From: an uncultured Chloroflexia bacterium
Lineage (GTDB): Bacteria > Chloroflexota > Dormibacteria > Aeolococcales > Aeolococcaceae
Direction: 5' to 3'
DNA length: 64,000 bases
NCBI GenBank assembly: GCA_963803165.1
Contig: CAWDLK010000003.1
Coordinates: 42,513 to 106,512, forward strand
Within the stretch, counting starts at the first letter, position 1; each line of letters starts with the position of its first letter. Positions 10,747 through 34,372 of this stretch are shown piece after piece. The translations under genes and the position numbers were made by a program. Under the pieces are notes generated by a model. It worked only from the letters and a program-made list of their open reading frames with translations. It searched no databases and was not told the origin of the DNA.

Positions 10747-10784
10747 CGGCGACGTAGCCAAGTGGTAAGGCACGGGTCTGCAAA
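10747..10784 (+). repeat. 38-nt direct repeat = 5' half of tRNA-Cys(GCA) (positions -1 to 37); putative left att site of integrated island
   Basis: cggcgacgtagccaagtggtaaggcacgggtctgcaaa is identical to 24751..24788 (5' half of the intact tRNA-Cys); identity stops inside the anticodon loop. Confidence 0.8.
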
Positions 10785-11666: not shown

Positions 11667-12979
11667 GAGAGACCGACGCCATCCGCGCGTCGATCGACTC
11701 GTTCACGCTGCTGCGGTGATCGCGGGCAAGCCCTCCGTGTCGATGGTGGAGTAGGTCTTGGTGAGCGACTCGGCGCTCATGTAGCGGCGGCCCACGGCCC
11801 ACTCGTCGTTCTGCTCGGCGAGCACGGCCCCGACCAGGCGGATGACCGCGTCGCGGTTGGGGAAGATGCCGACCACGTCGGTGCGTCGACGGAGCTCCTT
11901 GTTGAGCCGCTCCTGGGGGTTGTTGGACCAGATCTGGCGCCAGTGCTCCTTGGCGAAGGCGGTGAAGGCCAGCAGGTCGGGGGTCGCCTCCTCGAGCAGA
12001 TCGGCCGCCCGCGGGAAGCGCTCGCGGAGCTGCTCCACGATCCGGCCGTGCTGGGCCCAGGTCGAGGTGGCGTCGGGCTGGGCAAAGGTGGAGCGCACCA
12101 GGGTGGCCACCGCGGCCTGGGCGGATCGGGGCACCCGGCTCAGCAGGTTGCGCATGAAGTGGGTCCGGCACCGCTGCCAGCTGGCGCCGTCGAGGATGGC
12201 GGCGATGGCGTTCTTGAGCCCTTCGTGGGCGTCGGAGATCACCAGCCGGACCCCACGCAGTCCTCGGGCCACCAGGCCCCGCAGGAAGGCCGTCCAGGCG
12301 GCTCCATCCTCGGCGCTGACCACGTCGACGCCCAGGATCTCCCGCTTGCCCTCAGCGGTCACCCCGGTGGCAACGACGGCACAGACGTTGACGATCCGGC
12401 CGTCTTCGCGGACCCGCTGGGTCAGGGCGTCGACCCAGACGTAGGGGTAGCCGGCGGGGTCCAGCGGCCGGTTGCGGAAGCTCGCCACCATCGGGTCCAG
12501 CTCCTGGGCCATGGCGCTCACCTGGGACTTGCTCAGCCGCTCGATGCCGAGCGTCCGGACCAGACCCTCGACCCGGCGGGTGGAGACGCCGCGGACATAG
12601 CACTCGGCCACCACCGCCACCAGGGCCCGCTCCGATCGCCGGCGCTGCTCCAAGAGCCAGTCCGGGAAGTAGCTGCCCGAGCGCAGCTTGGGGATGGCCA
12701 GGTCGATCGTACCCGTTCGGGTGTCCCAGGTCCGCTCCCGGTACCCGTTGCGGGAGTTCACCCGCTCCGGGGTCCGCTCGCCATAGCCGGCCCCGCAGAG
12801 GCTGTCGACCTCCGCGTTCATCAGGGCGCCGGCGAAGGTCGTGATCATCTCCCGCAACAGGTCGGCGTCAGCCGCCTCCACCTGCTTGCGGAACCAGGTC
12901 AGGGCATCCATGCTGGGTGTGGCCACCGTCATCTCCTCGAGGTTGGTGATGCTTCCTCAAAGGATGGCGGTGGTCTCTC
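11667..12979. mobile_element. IS256-family insertion sequence (~1.3 kb) with ~18-bp imperfect terminal inverted repeats
   Basis: IRs GAGAGACCGACGCCATCC (11667..11684) and GAGAGACCACCGCCATCC (reverse complement of 12962..12979), 16/18 match; encloses the Mutator/IS256 transposase. Confidence 0.75.
11703..12932 (-). CDS. IS256 family (Mutator-type) transposase
   Basis: 409 aa; typical IS256 transposase sequence (…DGRIVNVCAVVATGVTAEGKREILG…ISDAHEGLKNAI…WQRCRTHFMRN…), DDE residues spaced as in the family. Confidence 0.9.
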   Translation of the reverse strand: MTVATPSMDALTWFRKQVEAADADLLREMITTFAGALMNAEVDSLCGAGYGERTPERVNSRNGYRERTWDTRTGTIDLAIPKLRSGSYFPDWLLEQRRRSERALVAVVAECYVRGVSTRRVEGLVRTLGIERLSKSQVSAMAQELDPMVASFRNRPLDPAGYPYVWVDALTQRVREDGRIVNVCAVVATGVTAEGKREILGVDVVSAEDGAAWTAFLRGLVARGLRGVRLVISDAHEGLKNAIAAILDGASWQRCRTHFMRNLLSRVPRSAQAAVATLVRSTFAQPDATSTWAQHGRIVEQLRERFPRAADLLEEATPDLLAFTAFAKEHWRQIWSNNPQERLNKELRRRTDVVGIFPNRDAVIRLVGAVLAEQNDEWAVGRRYMSAESLTKTYSTIDTEGLPAITAAA

Positions 12980-13565: not shown

Positions 13566-15089
13566 TCAACCGAAGGGGGTCTGGGTCCACTGGAGCCCGC
13601 CGTCCTGGGTGGTCCAGATGCTGTGTGGGTCGCCGATCCACCACCCGACCTGCGCACTCTCGAAGCCCAGCCATGCCGGACTGCCCGCCTGGGTCAGCTG
13701 CTGAGTATCGGTCGCGGTGGCGGTCCAGTGGTCTCCTGCGTCCGTCGAGACGAGCACTTCGGCGGTGAAGGATCCATTGCCACCGATGGGGCCGGTGGAG
13801 ACGGCAAGGACATTCGGGCTGGCAGCCGCCAGCAGGGCAAGAACCTGCACGTCGGGCAGGCTGCCTGTCGATGTCCAGACCCCGCCGCTGTCGGTGGAGG
13901 TGACGACGAAGGTGCCGCTCCCCGTATGCGGGCTGCACAGCCCGGCGTAGAAGCCGCCCGGGGCTGAGGTCAGATCGATGAGGTCCTCCTCCGTGCTCGT
14001 GCCGGTGGCTCCCTGGCCGGAGCACGGGTCGCTCGTCGTCTGCCAGGTGGACCCTCCGTCGGTCGACCGATAGACAGTCGCCTGCGCCGACGTCGGGCCG
14101 GCCTGGCTCCCGTACAGGGCGACCAGCAGCGCGGAGCCTGAGGCGGCGATCTGCGCGGAGTCACTGCGATCCGGGTACGCCAACTGGGCGATCAGCGTGT
14201 GCCACACGCTGGATCCGATCGCCGCATCCTGCAGGGTGGGATTGCACGGTCCGGGGCAACCGCCGCTGTCATAGGCGACGCGATAGGCATAGCCATCGGC
14301 GACGGTGAGCGTCTCCACCTGCAGCCCCAACTGCGGCTGCCAGTTGAGGCCTCCATCGGTGGTCATGAGCAGCCTTGGCCCGTACAGGTAGCCGACCGTC
14401 GGGCTGGCGAAGGCCAGCTCGCTGACGCAGGCAATGCTGGAGCAGTCGGCGGACCCGGTCTGGACCTGCGCCGGCGGGTCGGGCAGCGCCTGCCACTGCG
14501 CTCCGCCATCGGTGGTGTGTGCCAGGACGGCACAGCTTCCCGTGGCGCATGGCTGCACCGCGAGCGCCCATCCCTCGGTGGTGCTGATCCAGCTGAGATC
14601 CAGGAGGGAGGCATCCGCCAGGCTCGGCGCCGCGGTCGTCGAGAAGGACAACGGCGCGCTGGCCATGGGCGGCGGGCTCGGTGGCCCCTTGGGGCCGAGC
14701 TTGATCACCACCGCAACCAGGAGGCACTGGTCCTGACATGCGGTCGTCGTCTGGTTCGACCCGCTGAAGGCAGACGCCTGCGCGGTGAAAGCTCCCGAGG
14801 CGGTGCCGGTGGTCCCCGTGTACAGGGTGATGCCCGAGTCTTCACCGCAACTGCTCGCGCCACCAGCGGAGGGCGATCCGGCGCACTCGTAGACCGACAC
14901 CGTGGCGTCCAGGGGGAACTCACTCAGGCGCACCTGCAGCTGCTGACCGCCGACCAGCCCCGCGCTCGGCGAGACGCTCAGGGCGGGCGAAGCAGTCGCT
15001 GACGGGCTGGTCGACGCCGTTGGCCCCCGCGACGGGCCGGCCACGCTCGGCCCGCACCCGAGGGCGAACAGCGCAAGACCGGTGGCCAT
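13566..15089 (-). CDS. BNR/Asp-box repeat lipoprotein (Ycf48/sialidase-like beta-propeller)
   Basis: Lipobox LALFALGC; repeated SxDGGxxW motifs (TTDGGAQW, TTDGGLNW, STDGGSTW, TQDGGLQW); start moved to the Met at 15089 preceding the signal peptide. Confidence 0.7.
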   Translation of the reverse strand: MATGLALFALGCGPSVAGPSRGPTASTSPSATASPALSVSPSAGLVGGQQLQVRLSEFPLDATVSVYECAGSPSAGGASSCGEDSGITLYTGTTGTASGAFTAQASAFSGSNQTTTACQDQCLLVAVVIKLGPKGPPSPPPMASAPLSFSTTAAPSLADASLLDLSWISTTEGWALAVQPCATGSCAVLAHTTDGGAQWQALPDPPAQVQTGSADCSSIACVSELAFASPTVGYLYGPRLLMTTDGGLNWQPQLGLQVETLTVADGYAYRVAYDSGGCPGPCNPTLQDAAIGSSVWHTLIAQLAYPDRSDSAQIAASGSALLVALYGSQAGPTSAQATVYRSTDGGSTWQTTSDPCSGQGATGTSTEEDLIDLTSAPGGFYAGLCSPHTGSGTFVVTSTDSGGVWTSTGSLPDVQVLALLAAASPNVLAVSTGPIGGNGSFTAEVLVSTDAGDHWTATATDTQQLTQAGSPAWLGFESAQVGWWIGDPHSIWTTQDGGLQWTQTPFG

Positions 15090-15845
15090 GATGCATGGCA
15101 GACGGGCATGGGAGCGCCCGTGTTCCCGGGAAGGCGCACACCCTTCCACGAACGCCATCACCGAGACGGCAAGCACGCCCACAGGTCTCACCGGCGGCTC
15201 CTCGAACCTGGTCAAGCATATGACGCCGCGAGGGCCCTATCTGTTACGCGGACCGGTGCGGCTGGGCAAACCGCCAGCCGTCGCACGCACCTCCGACGCG
15301 GCCGACCAACACCGGCTGTGACAGCGGCGGCGCCTCCTGCCGCCGTGCCGCCGCCGCGGATTCTGCTCAGTCGACCTACACCCAGCCAACCGATCGGCCC
15401 AAGCGCGTCACCTCTGGGGCGGTTGTTAGCCAGATCAGAGCCGCCGACCGAGGGGATTCGAGAAATCGTTGCTAAATCGCCTCGGGGAGCGCGGACTCGA
15501 ACCGCGGACCCCTGGTCCCCCAGACGCACCAGGCACATCGTTGACGGCGTAGGCGTCACGCATCTGAATACACGGAGCCGCGCCAAACCGCACCCAGCCG
15601 CACCGCTGTGAAGGGCAGTTGGCATCGAGTCTGGCATCGCCCGTAGGGCCACCGACCCTGGTATGGCGTCGCCACGGGAAGTATGGCGACCGCACAACAT
15701 CCATTGCGCTCGCATAGGTTTCGACCCCTGGTCCGCCTCGAACTCCGGACCCCTCGTCCCGTACAAGGTGCCTCCCGCCGCCTCGAGGGCGTCGGAAGGG
15801 GCTAGCTGCCGGAGACCACGAGGCAGTCGCAGCGGCGGCAATATC

Positions 15846-16092: not shown

Positions 16093-16986
16093 ATGCTCAC
16101 CCTTACCCCCTTCGAGCGAAGCCTGCGCGCCCTGCTGGTCGAACACCTCCGCGACGCGGGCGGCGATCAGGACAAGGCCCTCATCACCGAGGAGGACCTC
16201 GACGCACGCATCGCTTCCCGCCCGCGGCACGGCAGCGACGCCCTCCGACCGCCCCACGACCGCTTCTTCCAAGCGTTGAGCCACATCTGCATCTACGAGG
16301 ACGAGCACGGACGGCCGCTTCTCGGCGCCATCGTGGTCGTCGAGAGCACGCGCCGCCCCGGCGATTGGTTTCAGCGCCTCACCGGCCACCTTGGGTTCGA
16401 GACCACCGGCACACGCCTCTGGTCGGACGAGCTGGACGCGCTCATCGATCTCTGGTCGTGGCAGCTCGCCCCGGACACCCTCGTCATCGCCGACATCATC
16501 GACCGTGGCGTCGAGACGCTAGACGCTCATGTCCGCGCTCTTGAGCGTTCCGTGCGCCGGGGCAGCCGTCTCCCCTACCTCAGCCGATCCGCTTCCTGGC
16601 CGTGCCAGCGCAACCACGACTTCATCCCGATGCTCCGGGCCAAGAACGTCGGCGACGCTCCGGCCGTCGATGCCCTCTACTGGGGCATGTCGAACTTCGC
16701 GCCCGCGCACCGCTCGGACCCCTTCAGCCTCGCCGCTGGCGAGGGGCCCGTCGACATCCCGCTGCGTCACTCCCCCACGACGCTCATGCGCGAGGTGATG
16801 GGCGATATGGTCGACGACGTCGCCGAGGTCCTCGTGTACGGCGACGGCGCCGGGCGCTGGCTGCGCCAGCGCCCCCACCTGGCCCAGCGCGCCGACGTCT
16901 GGGTCGACGACGGCCGCGCCGATCCGCCCGCCTGGCTCGCCTGGTACCGCACCATGCTCCGCGAGATTGGCTTGCGCCGTTCCTGA
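16093..16986 (+). CDS. hypothetical protein (297 aa), no recognisable domain
   Basis: Strong RBS AAGGAGG 8 nt upstream of ATG (16073..16080); coherent non-repetitive protein composition; inside island. Confidence 0.6.
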   Translation: MLTLTPFERSLRALLVEHLRDAGGDQDKALITEEDLDARIASRPRHGSDALRPPHDRFFQALSHICIYEDEHGRPLLGAIVVVESTRRPGDWFQRLTGHLGFETTGTRLWSDELDALIDLWSWQLAPDTLVIADIIDRGVETLDAHVRALERSVRRGSRLPYLSRSASWPCQRNHDFIPMLRAKNVGDAPAVDALYWGMSNFAPAHRSDPFSLAAGEGPVDIPLRHSPTTLMREVMGDMVDDVAEVLVYGDGAGRWLRQRPHLAQRADVWVDDGRADPPAWLAWYRTMLREIGLRRS

Positions 16987-17093
16987 ACCCACGCGCCAAC
17001 TCCCTGCAGCGCGATCGCCAGGGCTAGACGTTGCCGTGATTGCTGCCACGCATCACATGCACGAGTAGATGCGACACGCCGCGCAACCTCGAT

Positions 17094-18266
17094 CTACGGT
17101 GGGGCTTGCACATCGCTCCCCGGTAAGGCCTCCATAGGTCCAAGGTGGTAGCCAAGCGACCAAAGTCCGTATGCCACCTCGCGGAAGCAGTCGTAGCTGG
17201 CAAGCCACGCTCGAGCGTTACGGCACTCTGCATCCCGTGGCTCCCACCGGAACCCGTGTTGTGCCATGAAGGAGAGGACTTCGCTTGTCTCGGCGCGTGG
17301 CTGATCGACGGCTAAGTGCCTGGCCACGAGTGCCACGGGGCTGCGGTCAGACGCGTCGAGAGGTGAGCCGAGCGCAAATTCAGACACCCGCTCACCAGCG
17401 GCCATCATCCTCTCCAGTTCTGCCATCAAAGGGGGCCCGACCTCTTTTGCTATTGTGGCGACGCGCTCTCGTATCGACCGTCCGCGCTCGCTTCTCAAGT
17501 AAGCCACCAGAAGCCCAACCGCCACGAGGCCTAACGCCAGCGCTGCCTCCCGTCCGATTGTGCTGGCTAGCTTCTTCGCCCCGCTTACCCCGGCGTACCC
17601 GACGGCGCGCGCCGCGAGCTCGACGCCGTTGACACTGATGCCCATCTCCCCGAGCGTGTAGACATCCACGGCCACGGCGTCTGTCTTGGTATCCGGCAGG
17701 CCCAGCGGACGGAAATCACGACGGTTGTCCGTGACGAGGACGCTAGGTGCGAGGAGTAGAGCCAGCGCTGCTGTCGGGGCATCTGCGGCGTGGAGCGTAG
17801 CCACAGCCGCCACGCGCTGGTCCATCATCGCCTCTGGCGGAACCGGAACCACTCGGACGTTGGGAACGATTACATCGTTCCACACCAGGCGCACGCCTTC
17901 CACGTCTCCCCGGCGATCTGCTATATCCCGCAAGTGGCGGATCGCCTCCTCCATGACACATGGCGTGGCGAACAGGGCGATCCCGGTCCAAATGCTGTAC
18001 CCGGGACTCGCGCGACCGAGCAGTGCCGGCTTGTAGCCCTTGCGAACCGCGTAGTCCACATTGCGGATCAAGACGTCAGCGTCCACAACCACTGGGGTCG
18101 GAAAGAGAAGTGCCCCGCGGCCGGCGGCCCCACTCCTGGGCCCGCTCAACGGTCCTTCCAAACTATTAGCCCTCTGCACTCGGATGCCCGCCAAGGCCCT
18201 GAGCGCGATCCGGTTCTGCCACCGTAGCCCGGGTATCCCCCGGAATCGACGCCGACGCGGCCGCAA
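17094..18266 (-). CDS. PIN-domain protein fused to a C-terminal region with a transmembrane helix; start uncertain (N-terminal ~50 codons overlap upstream gene)
   Basis: PIN acidic residues in order: VVVDADVLI ... CVMEEAIRHL ... LHAADAPTAALALLL ... VLVTDNRRDF; predicted TM ALALGLVAVGLLVAYL; ~150 aa C-terminal domain of unknown function. Confidence 0.55.
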   Translation of the reverse strand: MRPRRRRFRGIPGLRWQNRIALRALAGIRVQRANSLEGPLSGPRSGAAGRGALLFPTPVVVDADVLIRNVDYAVRKGYKPALLGRASPGYSIWTGIALFATPCVMEEAIRHLRDIADRRGDVEGVRLVWNDVIVPNVRVVPVPPEAMMDQRVAAVATLHAADAPTAALALLLAPSVLVTDNRRDFRPLGLPDTKTDAVAVDVYTLGEMGISVNGVELAARAVGYAGVSGAKKLASTIGREAALALGLVAVGLLVAYLRSERGRSIRERVATIAKEVGPPLMAELERMMAAGERVSEFALGSPLDASDRSPVALVARHLAVDQPRAETSEVLSFMAQHGFRWEPRDAECRNARAWLASYDCFREVAYGLWSLGYHLGPMEALPGSDVQAPP

Positions 18267-18858
18267 CTGGCAGGTCCGCCGCCTCCTGCTCCATCGCGTC
18301 GATGACGAAGTCGATCTCGCGACGGGAAACGCTCACGAAGTGGAACCGGGTGACCCATGACCCGTCCCCTGAGGTAAGCGTCTGAGCCAAGTCCTGGTAC
18401 TGCACGAAGCCGTTGGCACCGGCCAAGTAGTCGGCAGGCAGGGGCCCACCCCCTAAAGCCGGCAGCTGGAGAGGAGGGTCTAACCGAGCATCCAGGCACT
18501 CACCGGCGGCGATGATTCCCGCGAGGATTCGGCGCTCCACTGGCGGACCATCCCCATTCCTCGTCGTGAGCACGCCGCGGACGTTGAACGCCGGCCCGCG
18601 CCCGCCGTTCTTCAAGGGCAGCAGGAGATCGCCGCTCTCATAACGCGTGTCGGCCCTTCCAGAGATGTAGTCCGCCGGCAGGTGGGGACAAACCACGGCG
18701 TGCTGCGCCCCCCATTCCCGAGCCCAGGCGTCGCTCAGCGCCTCCTTGCGATCGCGCTGCTCCCTCCGGATCGCGCGAGCATTCCAGACAAACCCACCCG
18801 TGCCGAGCACCACGGAAACGAGCAGGGATGACAGGGCGATCCAGAACGATCCGTCCAT
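18166..18858 (-). CDS. hypothetical membrane-anchored protein (N-terminal TM helix)
   Basis: 230 aa; N-terminal WIALSSLLVSVVLGTGGFVW hydrophobic helix then soluble domain; sits between the 500-aa gene and the PIN gene on the same strand. Confidence 0.45.
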   Translation of the reverse strand: MDGSFWIALSSLLVSVVLGTGGFVWNARAIRREQRDRKEALSDAWAREWGAQHAVVCPHLPADYISGRADTRYESGDLLLPLKNGGRGPAFNVRGVLTTRNGDGPPVERRILAGIIAAGECLDARLDPPLQLPALGGGPLPADYLAGANGFVQYQDLAQTLTSGDGSWVTRFHFVSVSRREIDFVIDAMEQEAADLPVAAASASIPGDTRATVAEPDRAQGLGGHPSAEG

Positions 18859-18924
18859 GCGGTCCAGAATGCTACCCGGCGCGTGCGCAACTCATTGGCG
18901 CCATCCAAACCCTGGGAGCAGCCA

Positions 18925-20427
18925 CTACAGCCCCAGCTGCCAGCGAATGCTTTGGCGCATCCAAGTTTCGAAGGGGTTGCCCGGTACCCCGTGTGGTGGG
19001 GCGCAGTGCTCTGGCAGCAGGGTCACGTGAGCCAGCCGCTCGACCGGCGTTAGCTCCATCAACCGGTCAAGCAACGGCGTCACGGTTTGGAAAAGTCGTT
19101 CCACGAGCCTTCCTGGATCAACGTGGGTGCGGCCCAACACCACTGCCCGGGCGCCCCATAAACTGCGACCGCCCTCGGCGTCCATGGCGGCCAACAGCTC
19201 CGCCTCTTCGCCAGCCGGCAGGCCCACCAGGGTCTCCTGCGGGCCGTGGTCTTGCGTGTAGGCGATGCCCTGCAACGCCGTACCGTGGACCGAGTTCCGA
19301 AGCAGGCGGACGATCGTCAGGACGTGGTTACCCGCGGTTCCATCGGCGACTACGTCAGCGAGGGTCGGCTCCGCCGCATGGCATTTCTGCCACCAGCTGT
19401 TCCGCTGCCAACCGACCAGGTGCTCGTCGTGCTGGATCCCGAGAACGCGGTGGGCAACTCGCGCGGCGATGTCGACGGCAGACATGAAGGAGACGAGGAC
19501 CACGTCCAGCGTGGACAGGGCGTCGTCGCGGAGGTCGTTGTTCTGCTTCTGGTTCAGAGCAAGATGGATGGCGTCGCGTAGCTCGAGAGCTCGGTCCACC
19601 CGTTGCAGAAGGCTACCGGCTAGCAGCAGGAGGGAGTCGTCGCCTGCGCCGGAGGCGTACTGGCCGCAGGCGTTGAACCACCGCCATGCCGCCGGCAGGA
19701 TGTCTCGGGTGCCGACCCAGAAGTAGAGGCCGCGATTGAAGCTGACGTGGTTGAGGATGTGGAACTCGCCCTGAGCCCGAAGGTACAACCCAACGAGCGT
19801 CAAGGCCTCTGCCGGGGTGCACACGGTGGTGCCGCGGTTGGCATACCCGCGGTACTTGTGGAGGAAGGATCGCTCGGTGACATAGAGATCAGCCTCGACC
19901 GCCTGGCTGGCCACCTGGGCCGCAATGGCGTCCTCCCGCCGATGGTTCCGGGCCTCCTCAGGAGCGAGGTGATCATAGGCATCGGTAGAGGTGTCGTTCT
20001 CGGCGACATCGACCGCGTTGCCACGGAGTCCAGCGGTCATGTACCCGTTGGCGTGCTCGGCCACTGTGACACCTCGGTATCCCGGCGGCGCCTCAGGGTT
20101 GACAATAGCCCAGCCGGGGTAGGCCTCGACCCCGGTTCGGTGGAGGACGGGCTGAACGCCGGGAGGAGGTCCGGTTGGAGAATATCGGAAGCAGCGGATG
20201 AGCTCGTTGTCCAAGAGGTCGGAGAGCAGGCTCGTCTGATCCAGGTGCTGAGTGGGGTCCAAGCGCGTCGTGTCTGTCTTCAGGTCAGCATCGATGGCCA
20301 CGACCATCTTGCGCAGCGGTCTTCGGTGAAAGAACACCGGGACCGCTTGACTGGGGTCGGTCGGCCAGACCGGGGCCCTAACGGTCTGCCGCGAGACGTC
20401 GAGCTGCTTCATCGACGCCCACCACAA
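18925..20427 (-). CDS. hypothetical protein (500 aa), no recognisable domain; possible Rx3H HEPN-like segment
   Basis: Long coherent ORF in lower-GC island DNA; segment RLLRNSVHGTALQ read directly; no assignable motif. Confidence 0.5.
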   Translation of the reverse strand: MWWASMKQLDVSRQTVRAPVWPTDPSQAVPVFFHRRPLRKMVVAIDADLKTDTTRLDPTQHLDQTSLLSDLLDNELIRCFRYSPTGPPPGVQPVLHRTGVEAYPGWAIVNPEAPPGYRGVTVAEHANGYMTAGLRGNAVDVAENDTSTDAYDHLAPEEARNHRREDAIAAQVASQAVEADLYVTERSFLHKYRGYANRGTTVCTPAEALTLVGLYLRAQGEFHILNHVSFNRGLYFWVGTRDILPAAWRWFNACGQYASGAGDDSLLLLAGSLLQRVDRALELRDAIHLALNQKQNNDLRDDALSTLDVVLVSFMSAVDIAARVAHRVLGIQHDEHLVGWQRNSWWQKCHAAEPTLADVVADGTAGNHVLTIVRLLRNSVHGTALQGIAYTQDHGPQETLVGLPAGEEAELLAAMDAEGGRSLWGARAVVLGRTHVDPGRLVERLFQTVTPLLDRLMELTPVERLAHVTLLPEHCAPPHGVPGNPFETWMRQSIRWQLGL

Positions 20428-20602
20428 CTCCGTCGTACGCCGGGGCGCGTTCCGGGTGCCTGCAAGCGACTAAGCCAGATGGAGGCCCGGTGCGTGGGGG
20501 TGCCGCGAGTCCCGACCAAGCTGGCGGCCCAGGCGGTAGCCGGGGTGACGGCGAGAGCGAAGAGAAGGGCAACGAGGGGAACGAAGCGACGGGCAGCGGT
20601 GC

Positions 20603-21103
20603 TCACGGCTCGGTGTCCGGAGGCGGGGGCAGGATCGAGACCAACTCGCCGGTGATCTGCACCCCATGGTGGTCGATGAGCTCCTGGAGGTACAGGCCGA
20701 GCTGTCCGCGGAGCTTCCCGAGTGCCTCATGGAGCGCCCCGGACTCGGGGCCCCAGCCGACGGGTCCACCCCACCGGCGACTACGCAGACCCCGCTGCAC
20801 TTCATCGAGGAATGCCCGGCACGCGGCTGCCATCCTCCGCAGGGTCACAGCGAGGTCAACGTCGCGGGGAAGGCGTCCGATCTCGTCAACGAGGTGACGC
20901 CGGATTTCGATGACCGAGACCACGCAGTGGTCGAGGATCTCGATGTCCAGCGGGTTGTATAGGACCCGGCGATCCTCCAGGAACGCGACCAGTCTTGCGA
21001 GCACCTCCTTCTCGACATCCGGTAGGTTCTCCCAGCCAACGCCACCGCCGACGACGGGAAGGCTCACGCTGGTGAGCCGCTTGCGGATACGAGGCCGCGG
21101 CAT
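20603..21103 (-). CDS. hypothetical protein (166 aa)
   Basis: Coherent composition, same strand and upstream of 500-aa gene; no motif recognised. Confidence 0.4.
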   Translation of the reverse strand: MPRPRIRKRLTSVSLPVVGGGVGWENLPDVEKEVLARLVAFLEDRRVLYNPLDIEILDHCVVSVIEIRRHLVDEIGRLPRDVDLAVTLRRMAAACRAFLDEVQRGLRSRRWGGPVGWGPESGALHEALGKLRGQLGLYLQELIDHHGVQITGELVSILPPPPDTEP

Positions 21104-22582
21104 CCGGGCAACGATACCTCGCGAGCCGGGGAAGATCTGGCCCCCCGGCCAGCGGAGCCAGCATGGCCGGCAGCAGCAGCGCCTGCGCTCGGAGGCTCAC
21201 CGCCCCCTTCTCGGGCGTCTCTGGATTCCAAGACCCGAGGTGTCAGGGGTCAACGCATCGCCATCGCGGGGCTTCTGGGCCTTCCCGCGGTGGCCCCGAT
21301 GGGTAAAGGTTTGAGGACCTTCAGGGGCCAGCGCAGCCGGCGGACGGCGTCACGGGCCCGGCGCTGCTCGGCCTGGGCTCGCCGGCTAAGCAGGCGGTAG
21401 CTGCCGTCGCGGAGAGCGGCGATGGCAGGGAGTGCCAGCTCCATGGTGGCCATCGCTTGGGCGGCGAGGACGTCGAGCTTCTGGAGCACCGCCCGGGCGT
21501 CGCGGAGCAGTGTCTCGGTCCGTTTGACCTCCCGGGCGAGGTTGAGCGGATCCCGCGTGGTCGTCGCATCGCCTCCCGTCGCATCATCCCCGGACGCTCC
21601 ATCCGCTGCGTTCGCGATGCAGCCTTCCGATCGCTGCGCTCCTCCCCATCGCCCAGCACGCCGCGTACGTCTGCATTCCCCTCGCCCCACGCCTGCTGGC
21701 GCGTTCGCGCTGTTCTCGGATACCGTACCCTATGCACCCTCCGGTCATCTGTTCGATCCACCCTCCCTGGCGCCACCCTCGACGCCCTCCTGGCACTCGT
21801 CCCGGCGCAGCCCGGGGCGCGGTGGACGGGGCAGCGAAAGGAGGGTTTCGGGGCTCGGCAGCTGCACGCGATGCGCAGGTGTCAGCGGTCGAGGGCAACC
21901 GGCACCGGGCCTCCTGGAGCTCCTTTGAGCACGCGTCCGTGTGCTCAAAGGAAGAGGGGATCTGGTTCGGGATAGGGTGGCGGTGGCCACTCAGCGTCGC
22001 GCCGGGCTGGGTCGTGGCGTGCACTGCCTCGCCCTGCCCGACGACCACAGCCAGTACGAGCTCGGTGAGCGCGAGACCCGGGACCACCCTTCTCCTCACC
22101 GCGAGGGCGAAGGGTGAGACAGCAGCGCATGCGGTTGGCGCGAGCGGCCGACGACAGGCCGGTACGGGTCGTTTGCTGCGTACTGCGCGATCGGTCACGC
22201 CCTCCTCGAGAAGCGCTGGGCTGTAACAAGTCCGTGACGGCGCAGGATCACTCAGCCGCTCCTGTACCCGCAAACGCACCGTCATGAACGCGTCTGTACC
22301 CCCATACGGAGCTAAGGATCGCGTCTGTACTCGCAGTCCCTTCGAACGATGTGGCACCCGTACGCAGGGCTCGGTGCGTACTGTGCGATCGGGTCGGCTT
22401 CGCGCTGAGAGTCGGCGGGACTGCGTACGGGGTTCGTACGCCCCATCTGCTCGCATGGGCCCGTGGAGCGACGAGCCTGGTCACTGTCGGACGGCACGGA
22501 GATGCCCGGGGCGGCACCCCTCCGCACAGACCGCGACGTGACAGCCAACGCCGATGACGTCGGGCCTTCGGGCCCGAACAAC

Positions 22583-22780
22583 ATGGCTTCGGTCGCCTCT
22601 CCGCAGCTCCTGCTATCGGTACCCGAGGCGGCTCGGGCGCTCGGGATCGCCCGCAGCTCGCTCTACGTCCTGATGGACCGTCATGAGCTCACCAGCGTCT
22701 CCATCGGGCGCCGACGGCTGCTCCCTGCGCGCGCCCTCGAGGAGTACGTCGACCGTCTCATCGAACGTTCCCGCTGCTGA
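22583..22780 (+). CDS. xis: excisionase / AlpA-MerR-like HTH DNA-binding protein
   Basis: LLSVPEAARALGIARSSLYVLMDRHELTSVSIGRRRLLPARALEEYVDRL, typical excisionase-family HTH; start placed at the internal Met (MASVASPQ) because the upstream part of the track ORF is non-protein-like; adjacent to int. Confidence 0.65.
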   Translation: MASVASPQLLLSVPEAARALGIARSSLYVLMDRHELTSVSIGRRRLLPARALEEYVDRLIERSRC

Positions 22781-22825: not shown

Positions 22826-23077
22826 TCAGGCTGCCGGCTGGACCGGGCGCACCGCCTCGCGAAGCCCCTCCGGATCGAGGTCGGCCCCGTTCGGCCACAC
22901 CACCGTGCCGAGCTCCGGATCGACCTGCACACGGCGGAAGATCGCCAGGTCGCGCAGCGGCTCGAACACCTCACCCCAAAGCTGCTCGGTGAGGTCGATG
23001 TCGCCGACGCTGCCATCGCTGAAGGTGAGCCGCAGCTCGTACCCCTCGCGCGGCTCGACGCTGATCACCTTGACCAC
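22826..23077 (-). CDS. DUF2442 domain protein
   Basis: 83 aa; MVKVISVEPREGYELRLTFSDGSVGDIDL...EPLRDLAIFRRVQVDPELGTVVWPNGADLDPE matches the DUF2442 consensus. Confidence 0.75.
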   Translation of the reverse strand: MVKVISVEPREGYELRLTFSDGSVGDIDLTEQLWGEVFEPLRDLAIFRRVQVDPELGTVVWPNGADLDPEGLREAVRPVQPAA

Positions 23078-23086
23078 GACCCCATC

Positions 23087-23356
23087 CTAAGCCAGCGGCT
23101 CGATGGTGACCAGCGGGCGCTGTTCGAGCACCCGCTGCCAGTTGTCGCGTAGCTCGTCGAGATGGAGGGACGCCCACTCCATCACGTGCCCGAGCGCCCG
23201 GGGAGGGAGCCAGCCGTCGAGGACCGCGAGCGGCTCGATGCCGATCGAGGCCTCGTGCTCGCCGTAGAGGGCGTGGAAGTGAGCGGCGTGATGCCGGCCC
23301 GCCGCCTCCCAGTACATGGCGATGACGATGCCGTAGAAGGCGCTGATCCGGGGCAT
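23087..23356 (-). CDS. DUF4160 domain protein (partner of DUF2442)
   Basis: 89 aa; MPRISAFYGIVIAMYWEAAGRHHAAHFHALYGEHEA, conserved DUF4160 N-terminus; abuts the integrase stop. Confidence 0.75.
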   Translation of the reverse strand: MPRISAFYGIVIAMYWEAAGRHHAAHFHALYGEHEASIGIEPLAVLDGWLPPRALGHVMEWASLHLDELRDNWQRVLEQRPLVTIEPLA

Positions 23357-24648
23357 CAGGCTTCGGGCCGACGACCCATGCGCCGGCGGGCTATCTCTTC
23401 GACAGCCTCACGCTGCATGGTCGGGGTCACGTGCGAGTACAAGTCGAGGGTGATGCCCACCGAGGCGTGGCCGAGCCGCTCCGAGGCCACCTTCGGGTGC
23501 ATCCCGTTCTTGAGCCAGTCCGTCGCCGCTGAGTGGCGCAGGTCGTGGAAGCGGACGTCGGGGAGGGCGGCGCGCCGGAGGAGACCATCGAGGGCGCGAG
23601 TGAGGGTGGTAGTGCTCAGGTAGCGGCCGAACTCGTTGGGGAAGACCAGGTCCTGCTCCACCCACATGGACCCAGCCCGGAGCCGGTCCTGCACCTGGCG
23701 CGCCCGATGTGCACGGAGGGCCTCGACTGTCTCGGGGAAGAGCACCAGGTTGCGCCGCGACCGGCGTGATTTCGGCGCGCCGATGGTGAGCTTCGACCGC
23801 AGTGCCCCTTGCAGCGACCCGGTGACCGACAGCATCCCCCGCTCCAGGTCGACGTCGCGCCAGCGAAGCCCGAGGATCTCGCCCTGGCGCAGCCCCTCCC
23901 GAATGGCCAGGACGAGGAGCGCCTCCAGCCGGTCGCCACGGACCGCCTCCACGAAGCGGTCGTAGTCGGCGTCGGCGAGGACGCGCATCTCGGTGCGGGC
24001 CATCGCCGGACGGGCGTCCTCGTCGACCAGGTCCGCCACGTTGCGGGCGACCTTGCCCTGGCGCACCGCCTTGGCCAGGGCGCGATGGATGACGGCGTGA
24101 ACGTGGTGGGCGGAGGTGGAGCTCAGCCCCATGCCGCCCTCGGCCGGGCTAGCGGTCATCCGCCGGTAGAGACGCTCCAGATCGCCCGGCTCCAGCTTCA
24201 CCAGAGGCTTGGTGGCGAACTCTGAGCGGAGGAGGTGGGCCCTCACGTAGCGGGAGTAGAAGTCGATCGTCGCGGGCTTCAGCTTCGCGGGGAGGCTGGC
24301 GACCCACTCCTGGAGCCAGGCCCCGACGGTGACCCGGGCGTCGGGCAGCGGGAGGCCCTCACGCTGCGTCTGGAGGGCCTCGGCGAGGGCCGCCTCGGCC
24401 TCGTCCTGGCTGTGCCGGTAGAACAGGCGGTAGGTCCCGTCCTCGAGCCTCAGGCGGCCGACCCAGCGGCCATCCTTCCGCTGGATGACGCCCCCCGTGC
24501 CCTTCTTCCGGCGGCCGCGGCGCGTCTCCTGGCGGGCGCCGCGCTCCGCTGACACCCCGTGTGACACCCTGCCGCGGCGACGGGGGCTCTCCGGCTCTTG
24601 ATTCCCGCTATCCTCGTTCACGTCGGCGCTCCTGGTGGAGCCGGCCAC
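23356..24648 (-). CDS. int: tyrosine-type site-specific integrase (phage integrase family)
   Basis: N-terminal SAM-like domain (GVIQRKDGRWVGRLRLEDGTYRLFY), catalytic HDLRHSAAT...LGHASVGITLDLYSHV (R..HxxR..Y); GTG start; an alternative GTG at 24621 has an AGGAG RBS. Confidence 0.9.
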   Translation of the reverse strand: MAGSTRSADVNEDSGNQEPESPRRRGRVSHGVSAERGARQETRRGRRKKGTGGVIQRKDGRWVGRLRLEDGTYRLFYRHSQDEAEAALAEALQTQREGLPLPDARVTVGAWLQEWVASLPAKLKPATIDFYSRYVRAHLLRSEFATKPLVKLEPGDLERLYRRMTASPAEGGMGLSSTSAHHVHAVIHRALAKAVRQGKVARNVADLVDEDARPAMARTEMRVLADADYDRFVEAVRGDRLEALLVLAIREGLRQGEILGLRWRDVDLERGMLSVTGSLQGALRSKLTIGAPKSRRSRRNLVLFPETVEALRAHRARQVQDRLRAGSMWVEQDLVFPNEFGRYLSTTTLTRALDGLLRRAALPDVRFHDLRHSAATDWLKNGMHPKVASERLGHASVGITLDLYSHVTPTMQREAVEEIARRRMGRRPEA

Positions 24649-24751
24649 GTCCCCGGCCGTTGCAGCAGCGCGGGGACTTCACACCTCTAGATGCTATAAG
24701 GTGTCAGATAGGGTGTCAACCTGATACCTTATGAGCGAAATTCCCTGACAC

Positions 24752-24825
24752 GGCGACGTAGCCAAGTGGTAAGGCACGGGTCTGCAAAACCCTGATCGTG
24801 GGTTCGATTCCCACCGTCGCCTCCA
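24752..24825 (+). tRNA. tRNA-Cys (anticodon GCA), CCA encoded
   Basis: Manual fold: acceptor GGCGACG/CGTCGCC, D-arm GCC-AAGTGGTAA-GGC, anticodon loop CTGCAAA (GCA), T-arm GTGGG-TTCGATT-CCCAC, discriminator T, CCA; C27-U43 mismatch in anticodon stem. Confidence 0.88.
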
Positions 24826-30924: not shown

Positions 30925-30999
30925 GCGGGAGTAGCTCAGTGGTAGAGCACTACCTTGCCAAGGTAGGGGTCACGGGTTCGAGCCCCGCCTCCCGCTCCA
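30925..30999 (+). tRNA. tRNA-Gly (anticodon GCC), CCA encoded
   Basis: GCGGGAGTAGCTCAGTGGTAGAGCACTACCTTGCCAAGGTAGGGGTCACGGGTTCGAGCCCCGCCTCCCGCTCCA; anticodon loop TTGCCAA; 7-bp acceptor GCGGGAG/CTCCCGC. Confidence 0.9.
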
Positions 31000-31159
31000 G
31001 CCCCCTTCGCTCCGACGTGGTGGCCTGGCCTCACCCGGCCGGATGGCGAGACCGGTTGAGGGCCCCCTGTGCGGCACGCCCGAGTTCATTGAAGTCCGGC
31101 CATGCAGCCCTGGCCGCCTCGGCTGCCTCTTGAGCCCCCGGAGTGTCGCGCAACATCGA

Positions 31160-33494: not shown

Positions 33495-33541
33495 CTTGCC
33501 AAGGTAGGGGGTCACGGGTTCGAGCCCCGCTTCCCGCTCCA
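33495..33541 (+). repeat. 47-nt degenerate direct repeat of the 3' end of tRNA-Gly (anticodon loop to CCA): att-type island boundary
   Basis: cttgccaaggtagggggtcacgggttcgagccccgcttcccgctcca vs tRNA-Gly 3' part (one extra g, one C>T); ~40 nt upstream of it is also similar to the region upstream of the second copy at 34346. Confidence 0.8.
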
Positions 33542-33617
33542 GCCTCCTCGAGGCGAGTTCAGATGACCCCGTCGAGGGCGCCCCGGAAGAACGCAGGATG
33601 CGCACACGCTCCTCTCG

Positions 33618-34345: not shown

Positions 34346-34372
34346 CTTGCCAAGGTAGGGTCACGGGTTCGA
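34346..34372 (+). repeat. second, shorter degenerate copy of tRNA-Gly 3'-half (anticodon loop to T-arm): relic att site
   Basis: cttgccaaggtagggtcacgggttcga matches tRNA-Gly 30952..30980 with one g missing; upstream ~60 nt resembles the sequence upstream of the 33495 repeat. Confidence 0.6.

Follow-up and report, generated by a model that had tools for sequence, protein, structure and literature searches.

Probable accretion of independent single-gene conflict-type cargo, including two candidate one-protein nucleases, in a tRNA-Cys island of a Dormibacterota genome

ApeA is an example of a single-protein HEPN defence protein. Experimentally validated defence that operates without an antitoxin is provided by DS-3, a one-protein PIN system, and by DS-11, of CBS-HEPN type (DefensePredictor). 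In HEPN domains helix 3 ends in the catalytic motif, a polar residue comes next, and an Ex3[KR] motif on helix 2 assists (PMC3710099). A different type of component is DUF6650. As ThsG it is the effector of type VI Thoeris, responds to 2'cADPR and invariably has a TIR gene as its partner (bioRxiv 10.64898/2025.12.03.692087); it also occurs within a validated one-gene system, 'SMEK' (PMC13092281). Pertinent to all of these is a block of five genes, here termed A to E, at positions 16093-21103 of a 64,000-nucleotide stretch of contig CAWDLK010000003.1 (the window). E, D, C and B follow one another on the reverse strand and A is convergent to them; coordinates are in Table 1. An initial annotation of the same DNA had regarded the block as a candidate uncharacterised conflict or defence module.

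The string E-D-C-B-A recurs only in two Logan contigs, L029 and L030, whose identity to the window is 99.9% (L029 differs from it by 2 indels). Co-occurrence was sought with profile hidden Markov models for B, D and E and with phmmer for A and C, and the loci covered, about 50 in all, were, for D, 23 from genomes (flanks of up to 10 kb) together with two metagenome lineages, and 19 loci of B and 8 of E. None of A, B, C and E is near a D homologue in this set, none of A, C, D and E is near a B homologue, and none of the other four genes is beside an E homologue. Clustering of neighbours gave no conserved partner, large or small, for either D or B (apart from antisense or out-of-frame shadows of the two genes), and the sole recurrent neighbour of B, a Mrr_cat_2-ResIII helicase, is limited to three loci that are 90-95% identical. 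With neither a partner nor co-occurrence across the D, B and E loci, each family therefore moves alone: B, D and E each belong to their own family, travelling singly between phyla and mobile contexts. Conservation of the string as a unit was the test that the initial annotation had itself put forward for one co-functioning module, and its confinement to 99.9%-identical contigs tells against that proposal; so too for the suggested arrangement of a PIN effector with a small transmembrane (TM) partner, as C is beside none of the 19 other B loci.

The block is thus probably variable cargo of a 14-kb tRNA-Cys island, an accretion of independent single-gene conflict-type genes and not a co-evolved multi-gene system. 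The converse, that E-D-C-B (with or without A) is one lineage-specific multi-gene defence system in which the DUF6650 protein or a membrane sensor controls two RNase effectors, is improbable. It has in its favor the common strand, the short gaps (175 nt between E and D, 66 nt between D and C and, if B starts at 18161, 4 nt between C and B), and the presence of conflict-type domains throughout, all within one island of low guanine-plus-cytosine (GC) content, but no pair of the genes co-occurs beyond the 99.9%-identical contigs in about 50 loci of three families, and in many other contexts each family occurs by itself.

D is a member of a large family that has so far escaped annotation. There are 242 significant matches among 8000 scored candidates (at least 242 clusters), a Pfam domain is present in none of the 120 matches listed, and a Pfam scan of 34 members gave nothing meaningful. 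The family also has no match to HEPN models, PADLOC, NCBIfam or PDB sequences, and Foldseek comparison of the D model with the PDB yielded nothing significant. The AlphaFold2 model (predicted local distance difference test, pLDDT, 89.8; predicted template modelling score 0.90) has an alpha/beta N-domain at about amino acids (aa) 40-262 and a C-domain of long helices. All 118 sequences have R377, N378 and H381, and 116 have G382. The R-N-x-x-H motif is at the end of the helix spanning residues 365-382, with N following R, and its Rx3H spacing is one residue under the canonical Rx4-6H; R374, which is 90% conserved, would give Rx6H with the same histidine. On the preceding helix (297-329) is D319-x3-R323 (99% and 97% conserved), where D takes the place of the HEPN E, and this is kept in distant plasmid homologues, in which the main motif is LRNT[IV]H. 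The motif at a helix end, the polar residue and the upstream acidic-x3-basic pair all recall the HEPN pattern, from which the spacing departs. From model and alignment its C-domain appears HEPN-like, and RNase activity is predicted. What had been remarked on at the outset as a weak HEPN-like Rx3H segment, RLLRNSVHG, is present in D within this apparently HEPN-like domain, and its R-N-x-x-H is invariant in 118 sequences.

The genome loci of D are in Actinomycetota, Chloroflexota, Dormibacterota, Alphaproteobacteria and Saccharibacteria (at least five phyla), and its homologues in Saccharibacteria, Alphaproteobacteria and Chloroflexota point to cross-phylum horizontal transfer of the family. More distant homologues, with 27-34% identity, are on Nocardia and Rhodococcus plasmids; no member of the family was found in IMG/VR viral contigs. 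Neighbors of D elsewhere include an MmeI/DEAD/T5orf172 cluster on a TrwC element, TrwC relaxases, integrases, recombinases, PsyrT-like RecQ helicases and DUF4238. Attention is drawn to two individual cases: a full-length homologue (42% identity) at 9929-11479 of L003, from a Candidatus Saccharibacteria metagenome-assembled genome (MAG) of 41% GC, and one at 546-1622 of L069, a conjugative-type Rhodococcus fascians plasmid, where a helicase-related gene and a gene for a TIR-domain protein are about 3 kb away. The D homologues of L013, L015, L018, L021 and L029 are distributed over two or three frames; long-read MAGs are the source of some, and assembly errors are as likely as pseudogenes to be the explanation.

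B combines a PIN domain, a hydrophobic helix and a winged helix. Its 38 homologues are about 323-344 aa long and align across some 90% of their length. The AlphaFold2 model, made with 30 family members, has a Rossmann-like, VapC-like PIN fold that is seen by structure alone: Pfam, NCBIfam and PADLOC (E<=1) do not detect it, nor is there a PDB sequence match. Among the acidic residues E49 and D104 are invariant in 30 sequences and D4 and D122 are conserved in at least 90%, with T121-D122-N123 forming the 'TDN' motif. A hydrophobic segment of 19 residues has the same position in all 30 members (Kyte-Doolittle 1.7-2.9), and a second, weaker one often occurs about 10 residues before it (1.3-1.75). 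The C-terminus has winged-helix topology, with weak matches to the DNA-binding domains of Fur and FokI. The early description of B as a PIN domain fused to a TM region was sound, and the winged helix is to be added to it. The two hydrophobic segments may act as a hairpin that anchors the protein at the membrane with both soluble domains in the cytoplasm, and the winged helix would bind nucleic acid.

Outside the window B adjoins SIR2_2, Mrr_cat_2-ResIII helicase, DUF5677, Mrr_cat/NA-iREase, integrase and Replic_Relax genes, and it is absent from IMG/VR viral contigs and from plasmid records. Its closest non-identical homologue (62% identity; L038 782-2053) has a gene for a SIR2_2-domain protein directly upstream. 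In one subclade (L046 2897-5923, L048 2879-5923 and L051 1252-4245) a gene for a protein of about 1000 aa, with Mrr_cat_2 and a ResIII/DEAD helicase, ends around 80 bp upstream of the B gene; being 90-95% identical, the three count as one observation. In keeping with the initial annotation, homologues of B and D occur in variable contexts with a flavor of mobile genetic elements or defence (SIR2, Mrr-helicase, DUF5677, MmeI, integrases and relaxases).

The resemblance of the B fold to VapC invites the thought that the island is stabilised by addiction (toxin-antitoxin) modules of which B, and perhaps D, would be the toxins, with C as an unconventional antitoxin positioned upstream as in VapBC. 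C is indeed directly upstream of B and possibly translationally coupled to it, and small-gene pairs such as DUF4160/DUF2442 are present in the island. However, C is a 230-aa membrane protein in which no DNA-binding domain was detected, the 19 B loci lack both C and any conserved small upstream gene, and D has no conserved small neighbor either, so that an addiction role is improbable. It is likewise unlikely that the tight C-B spacing reflects a lineage-specific association. The cluster of C at 90% identity has 2 members, the other one differing mainly in its C-terminal tail, and C has no match in plasmid records, phage records, viral contigs or the PDB. Open reading frames (ORFs) of about 230-250 aa downstream of several D homologues were considered as possible C-like proteins and rejected, as they have no similarity to it.

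The convergent protein, A, was the subject of an exhaustive phmmer search that gave 49 cluster representatives, 3 of them full-length and the rest of about 150 aa and matching only its N-domain. E69 and G73-R74-P75 are conserved in the family. A has no Pfam match (a scan of 33 family members gave nothing meaningful) and no PDB match. A beta-sandwich 'xNxGxxPA' domain shared by the C-domain of A and by C was entertained and is unsupported.

E is in a different category. Its match to PF20355 is above the cut-off and covers model positions 2-96 of 150, and all 52 of its 52 homologues carry the same Pfam domain. The initial annotation could assign none of the five genes to a family, PIN apart, or to a named defence system, and had suggested profile searches as a check. 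In these Pfam, NCBIfam, PADLOC and PHROGs were silent on A-D, and PADLOC-DB v2 gave no match for any of A-E at E<=1. The first statement accordingly stands for A, C and D and the second for A-D; for E the first does not hold and the second is only partly true (DUF6650, 2.5e-14; phrog_29952, 6e-22), which has the effector domain of type VI Thoeris, though without its TIR partner. No TIR gene is among the scanned island proteins or beside the 8 E homologues, and a search of the six-frame window with one TIR query, a weak test, found nothing. No TM segment was found in E. A conserved N-terminal G/S/W motif of the DUF6650 clade, RLTGxSTPxGGVSW (residues 6-31, about 21011-21088), gave the only PDB profile matches of the E family, to WD40-repeat proteins; these were summed matches with no single significant stretch and were judged a repeat artefact.

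The closest relatives of E (59-67% identity) are in other integrative elements. There the DUF6650 gene, downstream of an integrase, comes after an 81-aa homologue of the small gene H, which is 5' of E in the window, and after a ParE or HicA toxin gene. The order common to two unrelated elements (L034 2784-5507 and L035 2864-5693) is primase/Toprim, integrase, 81-aa H-like gene, small gene, ParE or HicA toxin and DUF6650. This shared order suggests that H and E occupy a conserved place close to the integrase and are not random cargo. Compared with those homologues H is apparently truncated at its N-terminus and extended at its C-terminus. Further relatives of E are in prophages, beside the integrase or near terminase and portal genes.

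Such positions are also pertinent to a further explanation, that the genes serve the element or the host in roles other than defence (RNA processing or element regulation), or that E is for counter-defence. The synteny of H and E near the integrase in L034 and L035, the prophage locations of E homologues, and the occurrence of some D homologues among housekeeping genes would all accord with it. Yet conflict genes typically show just such a combination of PIN and HEPN-like domains, catalytic-type residues kept intact, a patchy spread across phyla and variable contexts, and DUF6650 has so far been validated as a defence component only; this explanation is rather unlikely. A specific form of it starts from the context of stand-alone DUF6650 genes, lacking TIR and beside the integrases of islands and prophages. 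By analogy with Tad1/Tad2, stand-alone DUF6650 proteins such as E could conceivably be, in place of Thoeris effectors, element-encoded decoys that bind and sequester 2'cADPR-type immune signals, a counter-defence sponge made from the effector's own ligand-binding ring, though this is a long shot.

Returning to independent single-gene cargo as the preferred explanation, B and D would be autonomous, self-regulated ribonucleases in which one chain has both a sensor or regulatory part and the RNase effector. Until triggered, for instance by phage infection, they would stay inactive, and RNA cleavage would then arrest the cell. E may assemble a ligand-binding ring like that of ThsG. A defence function for genes of the block is plausible by analogy. 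Several points weigh against parts of this picture. The defence inference is based on domain type and loose context; PADLOC, Pfam and NCBIfam have nothing to say on A-D; and the neighborhoods of D are heterogeneous, some of them plainly housekeeping (cobalamin genes, for example). With a single TM helix the PIN and winged-helix domains of B would be on opposite sides of the membrane, and the second segment needed for a hairpin is weak. Because E, D, C and B share a direction and are separated by short gaps, there is room for co-transcription and lineage-specific co-function. The lineage restriction of C is provisional, as it derives from cluster membership and from searches of plasmid and phage records, viral contigs and the PDB.

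That the five ORFs are real and coherent, as first reported, is upheld by coding-like composition and by proteins identical to three of them. GC at third codon positions (GC3) is 0.72-0.89 for A-E, as against 0.44-0.53 at second positions, which is coding-like for a genome of 70-78% GC. The NCBI proteins MGO8687227, MGO8687229 and MGO8687231, from a Candidatus Dormibacteria MAG, have the same sequences as A, C and E respectively, and the host is for that reason assigned to Dormibacterota and not to Actinomycetota; B matches MGO8687228, called there with a shorter N-terminus (330 aa). The strong AAGGAGG ribosome binding site ascribed to the 297-aa gene is indeed 7 nt upstream of the ATG of A. 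For the PIN-TM gene, given at first as 17094..18266 on the reverse strand, the ORF is upheld and its 5' end is not, since the maximal ORF overlaps C by 101 bp. The true start of B is more likely TTG 18161 (355 aa; 4 nt past the C stop and with GAGGG upstream) or GTG 18092 (332 aa), the latter being the start called in Logan contigs. D may start at ATG 20412 (495 aa) instead of having the 500-aa form. Homologues beyond this locus were found for A, B, D and E.

Table 1. Features of the block and of the island that contains it (window positions)
Feature	Position	Strand	Support
A, convergent 297-aa protein; N-domain (aa 1-155) in small family of ~150-aa proteins, C-domain nearly unique	16093..16986	+	49 cluster representatives
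B, PIN-hydrophobic helix-winged-helix protein, 355 aa (TTG 18161) or 332 aa (GTG 18092)	17094..18161	-	38 homologues; AlphaFold2 pLDDT 84.5
B PIN domain, aa 1-150 of 332-aa form; conserved D4, E49, D104, D122/N123	17643..18092	-	
B conserved hydrophobic (TM-like) helix, aa 183-201	17490..17546	-	Kyte-Doolittle 1.7-2.9, 30/30 members
B C-terminal winged-helix domain, aa 252-313, H-E-H-H-E-E	17154..17339	-	
C, 230-aa lineage-restricted (provisional) protein; N-terminal TM helix aa 7-25	18166..18858	-	Kyte-Doolittle 1.89
D, 500-aa member of large unannotated family (alternative start ATG 20412)	18925..20427	-	242 matches; AlphaFold2 pLDDT 89.8
D N-terminal alpha/beta domain, aa 40-262; near-invariant D46, D145, R163, D166, D180, R186	19642..20310	-	
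D C-terminal HEPN-like helical domain (predicted), aa 265-460	19048..19635	-	
D motif R377-N-S-V-H381	19285-19299	-	
E, stand-alone DUF6650 (ThsG-like), 166 aa, without TIR neighbor	20603..21103	-	Pfam DUF6650 2.5e-14; phrog_29952 6e-22
Small gene H, ~79 aa	21250..21489	-	phmmer matches to 81-aa genes of L034, L035; 79 aa in L030
HTH_17/excisionase-type small DNA-binding protein	22463..22780	+	Pfam HTH_17 8.4e-10; phrog_66
DUF2442 (22826-23077) and DUF4160 (23087-23356), small-gene pair beside integrase	22826..23356	-	Pfam 1.3e-15, 4.6e-18
Tyrosine integrase of island, abutting tRNA-Cys	23356..24648	-	Pfam Phage_integrase 8.8e-23
Right island border, tRNA-Cys (GCA) 24752-24825	24751..24825	+	ARAGORN and repeat
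Left island border, displaced tRNA-Cys 5' half (att repeat)	10747..10784	+	perfect 38-bp repeat of 24751-24788
IS256/Mutator-family transposase within island	11703..12932	-	Pfam Transposase_mut 4e-135

The island itself is integrated at tRNA-Cys. A perfect 38-bp direct repeat (10747-10784 and 24751-24788) copies the 5' half of the tRNA gene, the first 37 nt of which fall within it, and from this pair at the two ends, and the integrase abutting the tRNA gene, the size of the island is about 14.0 kb. GC is 0.64-0.67 at 17-21 kb as against 0.75-0.78 in the distal flanks, and the initial placing of the block in lower-GC DNA, with IS256 on one side and an xis-int module on the other, was correct. 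Its designation as a mobile-cargo address was also correct, the block being integrative-island cargo with a 38-bp attachment (att) repeat. Most tRNA-targeting islands duplicate the 3' end of the tRNA. An island on the 5' side, with the att repeat corresponding to the tRNA 5' half, is for that reason a less common arrangement. PADLOC found no known defence system in the island, and the island proteins other than A-E gave just a weak mad1/HTH match; a promoter and terminator scan was uninformative.

Other cargo comprises a BNR/neocarzinostatin-like protein and a DUF6941 protein. The former, a 549-aa ORF at 13566-15215, has BNR/Asp-box, Sortilin-Vps10-like and neocarzinostatin-family matches, and it is not the usual kind of cargo in an integrative island of small size. 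Between 21490 and 22460 there is no ORF with coding-like GC3 (a 290-aa ORF at 21584-22456 is flat in codon-position GC), and this may be a decayed piece of island backbone. Decay could be imagined to extend further, leaving some of the ORFs as non-functional remnants, and besides this segment the IS256 transposase inside the island, the alteration of H at both ends and the near absence of relatives of C might be cited for it. But A, B, D and E are full-length by comparison with their homologues and keep all the conserved residues, and codon-position GC is coding-like, all of which makes an island in general decay very improbable. Elsewhere in the window, in a second lower-GC stretch, the 3' part of a tRNA-Gly (30954-31002; region 30925-30999) is repeated at 33495-33544 (50 bp, 96%) and at 34346-34372 (28 bp), which suggests one or two more small tandem islands.

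What emerges is not a new multi-gene system; instead, two uncharacterised single-protein nuclease architectures, those of the D and B families, are flagged. The D family, of about 500 aa, combines a HEPN-like site, in which the R-N-x-x-H spacing is invariant and unusual, with a second domain that has four near-invariant aspartates. Members of the B family, with their order of PIN, membrane helix and winged helix, are repeatedly found next to SIR2, Mrr and helicase genes. The two families are candidates for one-gene defence or abortive infection and, if that is true, the catalogue of autonomous RNase immunity proteins grows. The presence of a stand-alone DUF6650 clade on mobile elements is relevant to a question raised by the work on type VI Thoeris, how ThsG proteins without TM segments act, and the orphan copies raise a further one, whether they act in trans or as decoys.

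In relation to VapC-type PIN toxins, B shares the VapC-like fold and the conserved acidic residues, but it matches no Pfam PIN model and is without VapB. From these toxins and from DS-3 alike it is distinguished by fusion of the PIN domain to a hydrophobic helix and winged helix, an architecture for which Pfam, NCBIfam, PADLOC and the PDB sequences gave no match; the PIN of DS-3, moreover, is split between the N- and C-terminus. D differs from the HEPN RNases RnlA/LsoA, and from single-protein HEPN proteins, in its Rx3H spacing, in having no sequence match to a HEPN model or PDB chain, in having no RnlB- or MNT-type partner, and in its distinct N-domain with four near-invariant Asp residues. 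E is DUF6650 along its whole length, as in type VI Thoeris (TIR ThsB plus ThsG), and unlike that system has no adjacent TIR; the 299-aa SMEK protein has a 168-aa N-terminal extension that E lacks. At the level of the island, PADLOC's failure to recognise a defence system within it is a difference from defence islands. In common with them, and with the cargo hotspots of integrative elements, it has low-GC cargo between an att repeat and an integrase, several nuclease-type genes, and gene families that elsewhere adjoin restriction-modification, SIR2 and Mrr genes.

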